Origin: a virus
Lineage: Duplodnaviria > Heunggongvirae > Uroviricota > Caudoviricetes
Virus record (IMG/VR): IMGVR_UViG_3300011865_000035
Strand: one strand, 5' to 3'
DNA: 64,000 nucleotides
Below the pieces are notes generated by a model that saw only the letters and a program-made list of their open reading frames with translations, ran no database searches and had not been told where the DNA came from. The position numbers were made by a program, and so were the translations under genes. Positions 3,371-62,130 of the stretch are shown here, in pieces (the stretch's first letter is position 1; every line of letters starts with the position of its first letter).

Positions 3371-4531
3371 ATGGAAATAAAAATGATAAATTTTGATTTA
3401 ATCAAAAAAATCCCCAAAATATTATCAGAAATTGAAGTTAAAGATAATGAAAAATCTATAGAAATGATAGAAGCATTAGATAACGAGGATTTTTATAAAG
3501 CAATAGAATTACTAAAATGTAATGCTGAACCGAATATTGCCGTGTATGATGGAAGCAGAGAAGAATTTATTACAGTAATACAGGTGTTATTTGATAAGTT
3601 ATATGAATCTGAATCAAAAGTATCATTTTTTAAAGATTATATAGATTTAAATCCTGATGAAGAAGAATTATCTCTCGCGGAAAATAAGCATTTGAAAGCA
3701 CCTTATGAAGAAATTAGTTTATTTATAAAAGAATGGAAAAAATACGGTGGTTCTCTAAATGCTAATCTTATAAAAATTAAAAAACATGAATATAATGAAA
3801 TAAAAGATAACGAAATTAGAACAATGAGTGATTCCATTTTTAATTCATTATTTATTTGTACTGAAAAACAAAACTGGAATAATTATTATAGTTCTGCTTA
3901 TCTTGATGATCTTACCCGAATATTACTTTCATTGTCAGAAATAATGAATGAAAAATTAAAACCAGTGTTTTTGGAGAAACCAGTATTAAGTCTTGTATTA
4001 AAAGAATGTTGGCCGTTTTACACTACATTAGATTTTTTAGAAATTTTAAATCAAGAACATGATGAGTTTTTAATAAATAAAAGAAAAGGTGAAACAGTGT
4101 TACACACTTTAGTTGATTTAAGGAAGGAAAATAATTATTGTTTAGTTAAATATAGTAATCCAGATTATTTTAAATTTATAAATGAAACTATAGAAAATAT
4201 TAATAAAATATATCCTCCTGAATTATTATTAATTAAAAATAAAGAAGGTCTTTTACCTGTAGAATATTTTGCTAAAAAAGAGTCATGGAGCCAATTTATA
4301 ATTATGGATTCTTTAATGAAAAAAAATAATTATAAATATGAATTAACACAAGAAATAATAGATTCATTCCCAGAAGATTTAACCAAATTAGGAATGATTA
4401 GAGAAAATTTAACTGAAGAAAAATTAAAAGAAATGTTTGCTGAAATTTATACGCTCAAAGAGAAATCAGTATTAAATAAAGAAATTAGCGAAGATAAAGA
4501 AGTTAAAATTCAAAAAAACAATAGATTATAA
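3371..4531 (+). CDS. hypothetical protein with C-terminal KNNRL tail
   Basis: A 386-aa ORF with no recognisable domain. It ends ...QKNNRL. Confidence 0.5.
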   Translation: MEIKMINFDLIKKIPKILSEIEVKDNEKSIEMIEALDNEDFYKAIELLKCNAEPNIAVYDGSREEFITVIQVLFDKLYESESKVSFFKDYIDLNPDEEELSLAENKHLKAPYEEISLFIKEWKKYGGSLNANLIKIKKHEYNEIKDNEIRTMSDSIFNSLFICTEKQNWNNYYSSAYLDDLTRILLSLSEIMNEKLKPVFLEKPVLSLVLKECWPFYTTLDFLEILNQEHDEFLINKRKGETVLHTLVDLRKENNYCLVKYSNPDYFKFINETIENINKIYPPELLLIKNKEGLLPVEYFAKKESWSQFIIMDSLMKKNNYKYELTQEIIDSFPEDLTKLGMIRENLTEEKLKEMFAEIYTLKEKSVLNKEISEDKEVKIQKNNRL

Positions 4532-4605
4532 TAAAGATGTATTGACATTATATAAATAGTTTATTAATTGATGTTAAAGGAAATATTAAATGAGGTAAAC
4601 TATTT

Positions 4606-4785
4606 ATGTCAGAACAAGAAATAAAAACAGTAATATGTAGTCGTTGTGGAACAACAAAGGCAAAAAAAGTACAAGCTTCTATAGGAAGATCTGAAAATGA
4701 AGTTGTACCAGGAAACTTTCCGGTATTTATTTGTATGACATGTGGTGGAATAGTAAATGTTCCGGTCACAGCTAAAAAAGAATAA
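4606..4785 (+). CDS. small zinc-ribbon protein (59 aa, CxxC...CxxC)
   Basis: Not in the ORF track because it is under 60 aa. It has the SD GAGGT 8 nt upstream and two CxxC pairs (CSRCG...CMTCGG), and it is followed by a perfect 12-bp hairpin terminator. Confidence 0.45.
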   Translation: MSEQEIKTVICSRCGTTKAKKVQASIGRSENEVVPGNFPVFICMTCGGIVNVPVTAKKE

Positions 4786-4790
4786 TAAAA

Positions 4791-4829
4791 AAAGCTTTAT
4801 ATCTTGGAAATATAAAGCTTTAATTTTTT
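4791..4829. terminator. bidirectional rho-independent terminator
   Basis: aaagctttatat-cttggaa-atataaagcttt hairpin flanked by A-run and T-run, between convergent genes. Confidence 0.7.
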
Positions 4830-5658
4830 AAAGTCTTTGTTTATGTCCAGAAGGAATAGATTGAATAGTACAATCTAAAAATAATTTTTGTATTTCTGTT
4901 TGTTGTTCAACAGTAAAATTATTAATGTTTATTTTTTCATTAAATTGATTAAAGAATTTTTCATTATTATTATAACTATGTTTTGCTATCCATAAAAATT
5001 TTTCTAAATCCTCAATTAAACGAGGTATCTTAAGGTTATGTGGAGAACTATGAGTTTGTAAAGTATCTTTCATAGTTTGCAAATAAGAGTTATAATATAA
5101 TTCAAAATTATGTTTTAATTCCGTTGAATCACTTTTGAATATATCTAATATTATTTTTTGTTTATCTGAACTATTTTTTAATTCATTTACATTTATTTCT
5201 TTCATAATGTAATGGAAATTACTTTTATTAACGAATAATCTTTCTGATAAAACGGTTGAAAGTTCTGTGTTTGTTAATTCTGGGAATAATTGATTATAGA
5301 AATCAATGTTATTAAAGATAAATTTAAAATGTTGCAAATAAATTGCTTCTTTTAATTGTTCTGTGTTTTCATTTTTAATATTAGAAGTAAACATTATTTT
5401 ACGACAAATATCAACATGATCAGAATTTTCTTCTCCTATCTTAATAGGAATATTTTTAAAAAATTCAAAAAAATCAGAAACAAGATAACCTTTTTTATTG
5501 ATAATGGAGTTTATTTCTTGTTGAGTATAAGAATAAATATTTTCAGAATGAACTAAAGAAAGTGTGGTGAAAATCAAGTCCTTGTTAACCGAAGAATTAT
5601 CTTCAGGGAAATTTAAAAGTAAATGTAGAAATTCTTCTTTAGAAAGAGCTAAAGTCAT
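4828..5658 (-). CDS. hypothetical protein with C-terminal KQRL tail
   Basis: A 276-aa ORF that ends ...GHKQRL. Confidence 0.5.
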   Translation of the reverse strand: MTLALSKEEFLHLLLNFPEDNSSVNKDLIFTTLSLVHSENIYSYTQQEINSIINKKGYLVSDFFEFFKNIPIKIGEENSDHVDICRKIMFTSNIKNENTEQLKEAIYLQHFKFIFNNIDFYNQLFPELTNTELSTVLSERLFVNKSNFHYIMKEINVNELKNSSDKQKIILDIFKSDSTELKHNFELYYNSYLQTMKDTLQTHSSPHNLKIPRLIEDLEKFLWIAKHSYNNNEKFFNQFNEKININNFTVEQQTEIQKLFLDCTIQSIPSGHKQRL

Positions 5659-60948: not shown

Positions 60949-60973
60949 TATAAATAATTTTAAAATTTAATAT

Positions 60974-61004
60974 AGAGAGAATATGATGTTCTCTCTTATT
61001 TTGT
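60974..61004 (+). terminator. rho-independent terminator
   Basis: agagagaa-tatgatg-ttctctct followed by tattttgtg. Confidence 0.65.
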
Positions 61005-61461
61005 GATTGTAACTAATAGGTTTGTATGTTACAGTAGTGAATATCTTCATACAAAAAATAGGCTTTTTATGAAAACGATGATACTACTTATATTATTAAT
61101 TTGTTTTCCCTTTTCAACCACATTTGCGGCTTCTTTCATTGTAAAAAAGGAAGAAATTCAGGATATAAAAAAGATTGATAAACAACTATCAATTAAAACA
61201 AAAAATAACCATTATTTTTATGTTTTTTCTGCAAAAGATAATCATACCCTGGATTCCAATTTTAAAAATGGAAAAAATTATATTGAAATAAATGAAATAG
61301 GAAATGGGGTTTTATTTAGTATTAAAAATAAAGAAATAGATTCTAATGAAGATTCATATCTAAAAAAATATTTTATTATAATTTGTGTTTCTTTAAATAT
61401 TATAGTGTTATGTATGTCTATTATTAAATATTATCACAATAAAATAAAGAAATATTGTTAA
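61003..61461 (+). CDS. small membrane/secreted hypothetical protein
   Basis: The probable true start is M at about 61069 (MKTMILLILLICFPFSTTFAASF signal/anchor). There is a C-terminal TM. Confidence 0.4.
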   Translation: MIVTNRFVCYSSEYLHTKNRLFMKTMILLILLICFPFSTTFAASFIVKKEEIQDIKKIDKQLSIKTKNNHYFYVFSAKDNHTLDSNFKNGKNYIEINEIGNGVLFSIKNKEIDSNEDSYLKKYFIIICVSLNIIVLCMSIIKYYHNKIKKYC

Positions 61462-61473
61462 GGAATAATTGTA

Positions 61474-62130
61474 ATGAACAATTTTACTACAAAATATCAA
61501 GATAAATTAAATCAATTTATTTTAAATAACAAAGATGTATCTAAAAATGAATTAATATTTCAAAACCTGGAAAATGGTAATATCCAACATAAATACAAAA
61601 GAAATGCATTTATATTGTTATATTTAACCACAATATTTCTTATTCTATTACCTATCTTTAATATTATATTTGTTTATATATATTCTCAATCATTAATAAC
61701 AACATTTTTAACTGGAATAGTTTTATTTCCTTTGTATTTAATATTTGTATTTAGTACCACTTTTGTAGAATCATTAATCTCAATAATTTTGCCTAAAAAG
61801 CAATACTTAAAATATTTATTTAAAAATATGAAAGCTGATAGTGAAATGTTAGATATTTTTAAAGAGGAATATCCATTAAAAATACGACAACCAATCTTAA
61901 ATAAGGTTTTAAATAGTGATTCAGTCTATTTAGCAGGAACTAATGGTCGATTGTTAGAGTTTTTCAACAGTAAAAAAGGTGGCATCGTGACTGTTGCCGA
62001 TGCTCGTTTCTTACATAGTCTGGAAGAAATGAATGAAGAAATATTAGAAGAATATCAAAATATAGAGATTCAAAAGAAAGTAATGAAAGACGAAAAAGAA
62101 TTAACTAAAATTATAAAAAAAAGATTATAG
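61474..62130 (+). CDS. membrane protein (2-3 TM), C-terminal KKRL
   Basis: 218 aa. Its architecture resembles the 24.2-28.0 kb array. Confidence 0.5.
   Translation: MNNFTTKYQDKLNQFILNNKDVSKNELIFQNLENGNIQHKYKRNAFILLYLTTIFLILLPIFNIIFVYIYSQSLITTFLTGIVLFPLYLIFVFSTTFVESLISIILPKKQYLKYLFKNMKADSEMLDIFKEEYPLKIRQPILNKVLNSDSVYLAGTNGRLLEFFNSKKGGIVTVADARFLHSLEEMNEEILEEYQNIEIQKKVMKDEKELTKIIKKRL

Follow-up and report, generated by a model that had tools for sequence, protein, structure and literature searches.

Why do unrelated proteins encoded along one stretch of DNA end in nearly the same basic peptide? The question is raised by a 64,000-nucleotide stretch from the IMG/VR virus record IMGVR_UViG_3300011865_000035 (hereafter the window, meaning the whole stretch), in which an earlier note, made from the sequence alone, described a tail of the form [K/R]-x-[K/R]-R-[L/I] on about 27 of roughly 65 proteins and read it as an effector-export tag. 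We find that the tail is under selection as a peptide and that it forms the end of a larger unit, a ~30-residue bipartite module in which a helix and a linker precede the basic residues K-[K/R/N]-R-[L/I/M/F], whose carboxyl end is free. The pentapeptide first described thus captured too little, the terminal tetrapeptide being only the last part of the module.

All of the 20-odd gene starts given in the note proved correct on re-translation. Among the 64 non-overlapping translated open reading frames (ORFs) of the window, 27 end in R-[L/I], in agreement with the original count, against 0.35 expected from amino-acid composition, which bears out the proposed enrichment (binomial P ~4e-44; P ~5e-48 with the internal R-[L/I] dipeptide frequency as baseline). 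Two further ORFs, 7738-8796 and 15651-16601, have the variant ends HKNRF and KIKRM, giving 29 carriers and 35 non-carriers in the window. The final residue is limited to L, I, M or F, 39 of 50 carriers have K or R at position -3, and the mean net charge of the last six residues is +2.98 in carriers versus +0.59 in non-carriers. The motif is also a strictly terminal one: K-x-R-L is found at 18 C termini and only five times internally in 19,142 residues, and none of the 112 out-of-frame (shadow) ORFs of the window ends in R-[L/I].

Beyond the window, we examined same-species strain loci from public assemblies (L001-L006, L048-L051 and L160) as well as more distant relatives. Carriers in these non-window loci were defined by a pattern demanding Arg at -2, so the invariance of Arg(-2) there is true by definition. 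The proportion of ~40% given in the note holds for the sampled loci (40-45% of genes, in at least four species) and not as a whole-genome figure. Control loci came from a metagenome scan with AAAAAAAGATTATAGGAG that was meant to harvest loci of the lineage and whose 97 matches were all unrelated; here the tail is present on 11 of 523 ORFs, with a maximum of one per locus, and eight of the 11 were forced by the search pattern. A search of a 5.8-billion-protein index with the module profile scored only two same-species fragments, the word index being unsuited to a 44-residue low-complexity profile.

An alignment of 42-43 modules from the window and its relatives resolves a conserved block, a polar linker of 5-15 residues that varies in both length and sequence, and the terminus K-[K/R/N]-R-[L/I]. 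The consensus of the upstream block is …Φ-x-x-[E/Y]-E-[K/N]-x-x-[L/I]-x-x-x-Φ-x-x-N, where Φ is hydrophobic, and its core is E-[K/N]-x-x-[L/I]-x-x-x-Φ; a block pattern written after viewing the alignment occurs in 46 of 50 carriers versus nine of 75 non-carriers. A hidden Markov model built from the modules of other species with the last four residues removed still separates the window carriers from the non-carriers (Mann-Whitney P 3e-10). For the last 50 residues of 46482-47288, AlphaFold2 with an alignment of 29 window modules predicts a 26-residue helix (residues 16-41) at a predicted local distance difference test (pLDDT) score of 93-94, followed by a 9-residue coil, GNRITIKNRL. A single-sequence prediction of the whole carrier 3371-4531 reached a pLDDT of only 33 and was not used. 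The module helix is slightly acidic, and its best 18-residue hydrophobic moment (0.327) does not differ significantly from those of non-carrier C termini (0.325) or internal segments (0.343). In two non-carriers, 39187-40128 in the window and 17406-17951 in strain locus L048, an EK-x-L-like block precedes the end …K(L/F)KMKR, which may be a decayed or alternative tail.

Selection acts on the peptide rather than on the DNA, as the note had proposed, because the codons of the tail vary as they do genome-wide and no DNA similarity extends beyond them. The tail Arg codons mirror the genome-wide mix (AGA in 20 of 27, against 306 of 489), as do the Leu codons (TTA in 17 of 24, against 1237 of 1931). 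When the last 120 nt of the carriers plus 40 nt downstream were compared by BLASTN, only ~14-27-nt matches were found, lying over the KKRL-stop codons, and across the block and linker nucleotide identity does not rise above the compositional baseline. The tail is present at convergent gene ends and ahead of operon partners alike. TAA, TAG and TGA stops each follow tails, which indicates that the standard genetic code is used.

The carriers themselves are mostly unrelated in sequence. With the 30-35 C-terminal residues removed, BLASTP and phmmer link only the ankyrin family, which is the largest, and the pairs 18310/41363, 10508/11389 and 24206/24653, so that the description of the carriers as unrelated to one another stands apart from these few. 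In domain scans (21 soluble or polytopic carriers against Pfam and eight against NCBIfam, with precomputed and empty Pfam look-ups on other strains' orthologues for the two-transmembrane array and 61474-62130), the only Pfam, NCBIfam or PHROG domains in carriers are ankyrin repeats, in 21154 and 44294 and more weakly in 49081 and 41363. The ankyrin repeats reported in the note are therefore present, in just three to four of the 29 carriers. Its observation that no recognisable enzyme has the tail also holds: non-ankyrin Pfam domains occur in 0 of 29 carriers versus ~17 of 35 non-carriers. The latter include ProS-like, GluQ-RS, DNA methylase, macro, GDSL/DUF459, Band_7, AAA+, trypsin-like, metallophosphoesterase, S-adenosylmethionine (SAM)-methyltransferase, transglutaminase, nucleoside deoxyribosyltransferase and Imm11 domains. 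A Sec-like leader is likewise absent from all 29 carriers and present in 5-7 of the 35 non-carriers.

Membrane proteins make up ten of the 29 carriers, mostly with paired transmembrane segments, an arrangement that brings the tail and the basic N terminus to one and the same side, predicted to be the cytoplasmic one. Seven of the ten form the tandem array 24206-28037, whose ~145-residue members mostly have two closely spaced transmembrane segments. The sole untagged member of this array, 27073-27570, has about four transmembrane segments and a hydrophobic end (…IIWIIVTLINM). Carriers occur as orphans in co-directional arrays.

Comparison of strains shows that the carriers evolve quickly around a fixed terminus. 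Residue differences amount to 7.6% in carrier bodies versus 3.1% in non-carriers (~2.4x faster), and the minimum strain identity is significantly lower in carriers (P 0.005). The linker differs at 19%, with indels and replacements; even where indels have rewritten it, Arg(-2) is always unchanged and the last residue is L, I or M. Tails found beyond the window in the strain loci include KKKRI, QKIRL, KKKRL and GRKRL.

More distant species also retain the module. Locus L058, which shares the MoxR-DUF58-transglutaminase-ProS neighbourhood and has a transglutaminase only 30% identical to that of the window, bears the full module on ten of 22 ORFs and one more on a split ankyrin gene. Three other relatives were found through the syntenic flotillin/AAA+ gene pair: the module is on three of 20 ORFs in L157 (60% flotillin identity), on four of nine in L158 (45%) and on none of 20 in L159 (32%), which has only loose Lys-rich ends. 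When the 18310/41363 family was searched exhaustively by HMMER against 1.84 billion representatives, only seven clusters matched, and all five full-length homologues, with bodies that can barely be aligned, end in the block plus KSKRL, DRKRL, VRKRI, KNHRL or VKNRL. Because it is kept in distant species and in barely alignable homologues, the module is an old and strongly maintained trait of a rare clade.

The split gene of L058 (12250-13319) consists of an untagged ankyrin gene followed by a 72-residue ORF ending in …NEKEAICENISLNVNNQSSDNKNKRL, and was frameshifted or pseudogenised. The tail-less loci L056 and L052/L053, related through the ProS-like gene, have several loosely basic C termini (…RPKIKR, …PKRRRPR and …SKRKIKVK; …KKIKKAP and …KSRKVLKP). 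These may be degenerate counterparts of the signal or may reflect mere Lys-rich composition.

Table 1. Genes of the window whose products carry the C-terminal module, with the residues at their C-terminal ends
Coordinates	Strand	Product	C-terminal end	Remarks
3371..4531	+	Soluble orphan, 386 aa	..LKEKSVLNKEISEDKEVKIQKNNRL	
4828..5658	-	Orphan, 276 aa	..TEIQKLFLDCTIQSIPSGHKQRL	
7738..8796	+	Variant carrier, 352 aa	..INKKVLNNLLSGNSEINNKIHKNRF (HKNRF)	27%-identical L058 homologue ends SSKRL
8853..10448	+	Orphan, 531 aa	..EERQILSNNLKQNNDIKISKQRL	
10508..11386	+	292 aa	..AEYERKSLNNLMSENGDKFTLSKKRL	
11389..11757	+	122 aa	..EESEVLKEQFMDNKKTIKTRL	Weak paralogue of 10508..11386
13691..14980	+	Orphan, 429 aa	..NYEKETLHSLFDNSDKKVAINVRNRL	
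15651..16601	+	Variant carrier, 316 aa	..MENKKLNEIMNTQYIKQKIKRM (KIKRM)	Strain orthologues (71-74% identical) end KIKRI
16949..17998	+	Polytopic membrane protein, 349 aa	..NIELNKIIEQNLKNNDTPVIQKKRRL	
18310..19923	+	537 aa	..VEKRQLNNIMATNSLKNKVKNRL	Paralogue of 41363-42913; remote homologues P0153-P0156 all retain the module
21154..22026	-	Ankyrin repeats, 290 aa	..HDKKILEEYLVIEHKTASNIKRI	Strain orthologues: linker replaced, end KM[KR]RI kept
24206..24643	+	First of tandem transmembrane array (~145 aa, two close transmembrane segments)	..AEYQKEVLDNTFETKNVVIKKCKRL	
24653..25078	+	Transmembrane array member	..EKEKSILDNTFTNVVKSKKTKRL	
25088..25510	+	Transmembrane array member	..EDEMNKILLIDNIQNKVVSRKRI	TGA stop follows
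25718..26143	+	Transmembrane array member	..LENQELKKVISENNAEAPTKSKKRL	
26156..26599	+	Transmembrane array member	..EEKVLNEIVSNNIIKKNSKTIAKSRL	
26602..27063	+	Transmembrane array member	..ENEELNQIFIANSSSETNEINTLAKSKKRL	Strain L004: linker rewritten, end TKKRL kept
27579..28037	+	Transmembrane array member	..EEDNELLSQNKPIQLSKRRL	
38090..39175	+	Orphan, 361 aa	..ILEKMLLIDALNENSKNEPTAKRRL	
40196..41233	-	Orphan, 345 aa	..HDKHLISKHITDTVIEDKPVRRL	
41363..42913	+	516 aa	..EKEKEILLENLKENGIINKPSTRRL	Paralogue of 18310-19923
44294..45283	+	Ankyrin repeats, 329 aa	..DLRELNEILPFDVNIAKDAKQKKRL	
45278..46333	-	Orphan, 351 aa	..DNKELLNILLENDNHIKKSFKNRL	
46482..47288	+	268 aa	GNRITIKNRL	
47301..49040	+	Orphan, 579 aa	..VEKRLLLIHMSNNKLEPVSKKRL	TGA stop follows
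49081..49842	-	Weak ankyrin, 253 aa	..AYQKKALESILASNIKENSIVKRRI	In ankyrin family by phmmer
56325..58052	-	Orphan, 575 aa	..VQKFMLDLELLSSTLNINNNIKKRL	
58091..59113	-	Membrane protein, 340 aa	..LSILNENNQIKESFSNSPNELTIKRRL	TGA stop follows
61474..62130	+	Two transmembrane segments, 218 aa	..EEYQNIEIQKKVMKDEKELTKIIKKRL	

Our preferred explanation, which we hold with moderate confidence, is that the module is a lineage-specific, Sec-independent sorting or translocation signal that is read through the free C terminus and labels a large set of fast-evolving, effector-like proteins. A sorting signal recognised in the cytoplasm of the producer is suggested by the obligatory terminal position, the invariant Arg with its hydrophobic end, the tolerant linker, the conserved helix, the unrelated soluble and membrane carriers, the exclusion of the module from enzymes and Sec substrates and the faster divergence of the carriers. 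The absence of a Sec leader, the cytoplasmic-side tail, the faster carriers and the deep conservation are new, indirect observations that fit this explanation. A cytoplasmic receptor would bind the terminal R-Φ-COOH together with the helix and would pass the protein on for export or translocation by a Sec-independent route. The repertoire marked in this way would be a diversifying set of soluble orphans, ankyrin proteins and small hairpin membrane proteins, with enzymes and Sec-exported proteins remaining untagged. What the sequences show is that the module exists, how it is built, that it is selected as a peptide, which proteins carry it and how deep it reaches in phylogeny; an export or translocation role, the machine that would read it and the target cell are inferred.

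Is the module a type IV secretion system (T4SS) signal, as the note had suggested by analogy? It resembles T4SS C-terminal signals in lying within the last ~20-35 residues and being apparently uncleaved, in its net positive end (+3 over the last six residues; VirB/VirD4-type signals lie in the C-terminal ~20-50 residues and have a net positive charge), and in its Sec-leader-independent presence on unrelated effectors, ankyrin and membrane proteins included. The Beps of Bartonella, with a BID domain and a basic tail, combine a structured element with a basic tail, like the present module. The Arg-spacing consensus of Agrobacterium T4SS substrates, R-x7-R-x-R-x-R, is found in the last 35 residues of none of the 50 carriers. 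The E-block of Dot/Icm substrates (at least three D/E at -17..-10) is not enriched (five of 50 carriers versus 13 of 75 non-carriers), the acidic residues of the module lying further upstream, in the helix. The hydrophobic residue of Dot/Icm signals at -3/-4 is present in only nine of 50 carriers, and the terminus is fixed as R-[LIMF] rather than tolerant. The present tag, with its invariant Arg at -2 and obligatory hydrophobic last residue, also differs from T4SS signals in that these are degenerate, the known ones being loose compositional preferences (KxxE, ExxE, SxxS) found in about half of effectors (PMC3915618). As a T4SS signal, the module would be unusually strict.

Type I secretion system (T1SS) signals, both HlyA-type and those of Rickettsiales Ank and TRP substrates, are likewise C-terminal, uncleaved and Sec-independent and can include a helix; they differ in lacking fixed terminal residues. 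The carriers contain no RTX GGxGxD repeats (0 of 50), and the composition of their last 50 residues is not T1SS-like (LDAVTSIF 0.46 in carriers versus 0.50 in non-carriers; KHPMWC 0.197 versus 0.193). Chlamydial Inc proteins possess a "bilobed hydrophobic domain" of two close transmembrane segments with both ends on one side. The array 24206-28037 shares this layout, a likeness that is architectural only, with no sequence similarity, and Incs differ in using N-terminal type III secretion system (T3SS) signals and in having no common C-terminal tag. The effectors of Dependentiae carry N-terminal Sec signals instead (PMC6561590).

Several points weigh against the sorting or translocation reading. 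Genes for T1SS, T3SS, T4SS, T6SS or T7SS were not seen in the window or in ~100 kb of tail-bearing relatives, in line with the remark in the note that the receptor or secretion machinery is not in the window. Ankyrin, the sole eukaryote-like domain, is confined to a handful of carriers. The export of ~40% of genes would be unprecedented, and the sampled regions may be islands. A block, a spacer and a free-carboxylate terminus is also the architecture of an adaptor-assisted degron. About 190 kb of the wider lineage contains one tRNA, no rRNA and no ribosomal-protein gene, the species is not among the GTDB r232 representatives searched, and the replicon may be something other than a cellular chromosome. 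Of the effector-export reading in the note, the peptide-level tag on unrelated, non-housekeeping proteins stands; the assignment to a T4SS is tentative, with no secretion gene seen in the DNA sampled, no Arg pattern and no E-block enrichment, and a eukaryotic target is likewise only a possibility, drawn from three to four ankyrin carriers out of 29.

A tentative version of a sorting signal is that the lineage, or giant extrachromosomal element, has a C-terminal "postcode" of its own, in which a dedicated receptor for the helix and R-Φ-COOH, comparable to PEX5 reading the peroxisomal targeting signal type 1 (PTS1) or the KDEL receptor reading KDEL, would deliver perhaps a third of proteins to an undescribed pathway unrelated to T1SS, T4SS and T9SS. 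Such a pathway would be one of export, injection or compartment loading, for soluble and membrane proteins alike. Lineage-restricted C-terminal tags that are found on many unrelated proteins and define a "sortome" are known from the T9SS C-terminal domain, PEP-CTERM/exosortase, LPXTG/sortase and GlyGly-CTERM/rhombosortase. Unlike the present tag, which has neither a Sec leader nor a transmembrane helix, these systems use an N-terminal Sec leader together with a transmembrane helix or a ~80-residue beta-sandwich, and are cleaved. Pfam and NCBIfam models do not match the carrier C termini (21 soluble or polytopic carriers with Pfam, eight with NCBIfam), and our literature searches found no prior description of the motif or of a comparable signal. 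The module looks like a previously undescribed, exceptionally stereotyped variant of a C-terminal sorting signal.

The sharpness of the signal is what gives it wider interest. Known one-step secretion signals (T3SS, T4SS, T1SS) are degenerate, which makes effector repertoires hard to define, whereas the present signal is nearly deterministic; a rule of helix block plus terminal K-x-R-[L/I] would list the full cargo set of an uncultivated lineage from sequence. So sharp a motif also offers a clean handle for a receptor search and an orthogonal tag for biotechnology. Were the reader a new machine, it would define a new prokaryotic protein-sorting pathway; were it a T4SS coupling protein, the module would be the first T4SS signal known to be strict and carboxylate-anchored and would shed light on substrate recognition by coupling proteins.

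Degradation, for which the note's alternative of a C-degron allowed, is an unlikely reading. The module would then be a bipartite C-degron, with an AAA+ unfoldase or protease binding K-x-R-L-COOH and an adaptor binding the helix, giving an entire class of proteins short, regulated lifetimes, such as those that a giant mobile element makes early or uses in host takeover. Precedents are ssrA with SspB and ClpX, and the MuA C terminus, RRKKAI, with ClpX. The strictly terminal tag, in which a single hydrophobic residue closes a basic cluster, is MuA-like (ClpX C-motif 2), and the bipartite layout with a spacer of variable length recalls the adaptor site, spacer and terminal residues of ssrA, a resemblance of layout only. 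The cytoplasmic position of the tail on membrane carriers, the arrangement of carriers as orphans in co-directional arrays and a conserved 1,624-residue classical AAA protein in the neighbourhood (33118-37992) would suit a degron too. The AAA+ gene is, however, also present in L159, where none of the 20 ORFs has the RL tail, and the neighbourhood showed no gene for Clp, Lon or FtsH; more generally, no protease or adaptor was identified. The present tag further differs from these degrons in being genomically encoded on ~40% of local genes and in its much longer helix. Destroying the products of so many genes, 500-residue proteins included, seems wasteful, and ankyrin and hairpin-membrane carriers that resemble interaction or effector proteins and diversify fast better fit interaction with another cell.

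It is rather improbable that the module is a docking peptide for cargo, the helix and basic tail fixing many different proteins to a common shell or scaffold, for example a capsid, a vesicle coat, an encapsulin-like compartment or the payload chamber of a contractile injection device, for joint packaging and delivery. Precedents exist in the cargo peptides of encapsulins and in the basic helix at the C terminus of the P22 scaffolding protein, and the tag is suitably C-terminal, short, uncleaved-looking and modular on unrelated proteins. The replicon may also be a giant or virus-like element, given that no housekeeping genes were sampled, that contigs reach 619 kb and that it is absent from GTDB representatives. 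A third of the carriers, on the other hand, are integral membrane proteins, which a proteinaceous shell would take up only with difficulty; PHROG gave no match for ten window proteins, genes for a capsid, a terminase, an encapsulin or contractile injection were not seen, and there are no relatives in IMG/VR or INPHARED.

We give little credence to mimicry of host motifs after delivery, in which x-R-[L/I/M]-COOH would imitate PTS1 or the KKxx endoplasmic reticulum (ER) retrieval signal and so steer effectors, or the cytosolic tails of membrane effectors, within a eukaryotic host, an idea compatible with an export signal. PTS1 (-[S/A/C]-[K/R/H]-[L/M]-COOH, read by the tetratricopeptide repeat receptor PEX5) is likewise a terminal tripeptide-type signal that needs a free carboxylate, with a basic -2 residue, L/I/M at -1, upstream basic residues favoured and unrelated carriers, and some of the present carriers are ankyrin proteins. 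The canonical tripeptide is nevertheless found in only one of 50 carriers (KSRL), with -3 being K or R rather than a small residue. The dilysine signals KKxx and KxKxx fit 15 and ten of 50 carriers, respectively, most carriers being soluble, and KKxx leaves the invariant R-L unexplained. The conserved upstream helix belongs to neither signal, membrane proteins are tagged too, the genes are prokaryotic in having Shine-Dalgarno motifs, and there is no sign of a eukaryotic host.

That the module is a membrane-targeting sequence, a C-terminal amphipathic helix with a basic end acting as a peripheral tether like those of MinD and FtsA, is highly improbable: a helix does precede a basic terminus, but an amphipathic anchor was rejected on its hydrophobic moment, which is no higher than in the controls given above, one carrier in three is an integral membrane protein in any case, and neither an invariant Arg(-2) nor an obligatory terminal position is needed for membrane binding. 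We attach next to no weight to a non-protein origin (a repeated DNA element, a terminator or promoter over gene ends, a termination-context effect or a gene-calling artefact), for although the commonest codons yield a recurrent AAAAAAAGATTATA[AG] string and GGAG, the ribosome-binding site of the next gene, follows three copies of it, DNA similarity is restricted to the 15-27 nt encoding the tail, synonymous codons, stops and gene contexts vary as described, the final residue varies only among L/I/M/F, shadow ORFs lack the tail and the same 18-mer occurs elsewhere in metagenomes without association to other tails; codon usage and nucleotide similarity led us to reject a repeated element and by-products of a terminator or ribosome-binding site.

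The window has a GC content of 24%, 50 of its 64 genes are on the + strand, and GC skew and AT skew are positive throughout. Such a purine-loaded leading strand is what low-GC replicons of the Bacillota or Mycoplasmatota-like kind, or their mobile elements, typically show. A Shine-Dalgarno motif lies ahead of 28 of the 64 starts, versus a background of 5-7%, and hairpin-plus-T terminators are common, from which we conclude that the genes are translated in a prokaryote. No tRNA genes are present in the 64-kb window. Exact window proteins sit on a 393,835-bp contig of the Joint Genome Institute (JGI), and same-species contigs reach 619,264 bp. Scans of IMG/VR, INPHARED, PLSDB and E. coli genomes found no relatives of the window, and the best GluQ matches in GTDB are only from Planctomycetota and Alphaproteobacteria, at 27-33% identity (locally up to 49%). 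Ten window proteins compared with PHROG drew no match, and the sampled DNA holds almost no cellular housekeeping genes either. The replicon may belong to an uncultivated bacterium of which accessory islands were sampled, or may be a giant extrachromosomal or virus-like element.

Two minor features of the sequence and its database record may be mentioned here. In each of the convergent gene pairs at 21102-21154, 49040-49081, 56274-56325 and 63641-63683, the two genes share a single GC-rich hairpin between A and T runs, which can thus serve as a bidirectional intrinsic terminator. The 90%-identity clusters of 16949-17998, 11389-11757 and 966-3002 include "Escherichia coli" third-party-assembly (TPA) entries (HCJ8469696.1, HCJ8469704.1 and HCJ8469718.1; tags NV714_0035xx), which indicates that an NCBI "Escherichia coli" TPA assembly is contaminated by the window organism.

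Among the untagged genes, the ProS-like aminoacyl-tRNA-ligase paralogue (374 residues, 6310-7434) is 69-81% identical in L052, L056, L058 and L059, whose genomes otherwise share little. As a guide to relatives this gene was misleading, since L056, L059 and L052 share it (69-76%) and are tail-less with differing GC (40% in L052); the contig bearing L056 is 1.3 Mb long. Relatives were traced more reliably through flotillin/AAA+ synteny. The ProS-like gene is either unusually slow-evolving or horizontally exchanged.

The block 29528-37992 encodes a PspA-like protein, an NfeD-like membrane protein, a 655-residue flotillin (Band_7) and the 1,624-residue AAA+ protein (33118-37992; DUF3686/AAA/DUF7902). 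Its NfeD-like/flotillin/AAA+ core is syntenic down to 32% flotillin identity (L157, L158 and L159), with the PspA-like gene found only in the window and L157. The block, for which neither PADLOC nor PHROG gave a match, could act in membrane remodelling or stress, or could supply a candidate reader or unfoldase of the tag. Finally, 53002-55362 holds four tandem Imm11-type polymorphic-toxin immunity paralogues, 56-78% identical, with no toxin gene adjoining; among the relatives, L157 has an orphan Rap1a and L059 an orphan SUKH/SMI1_KNR4 immunity gene.

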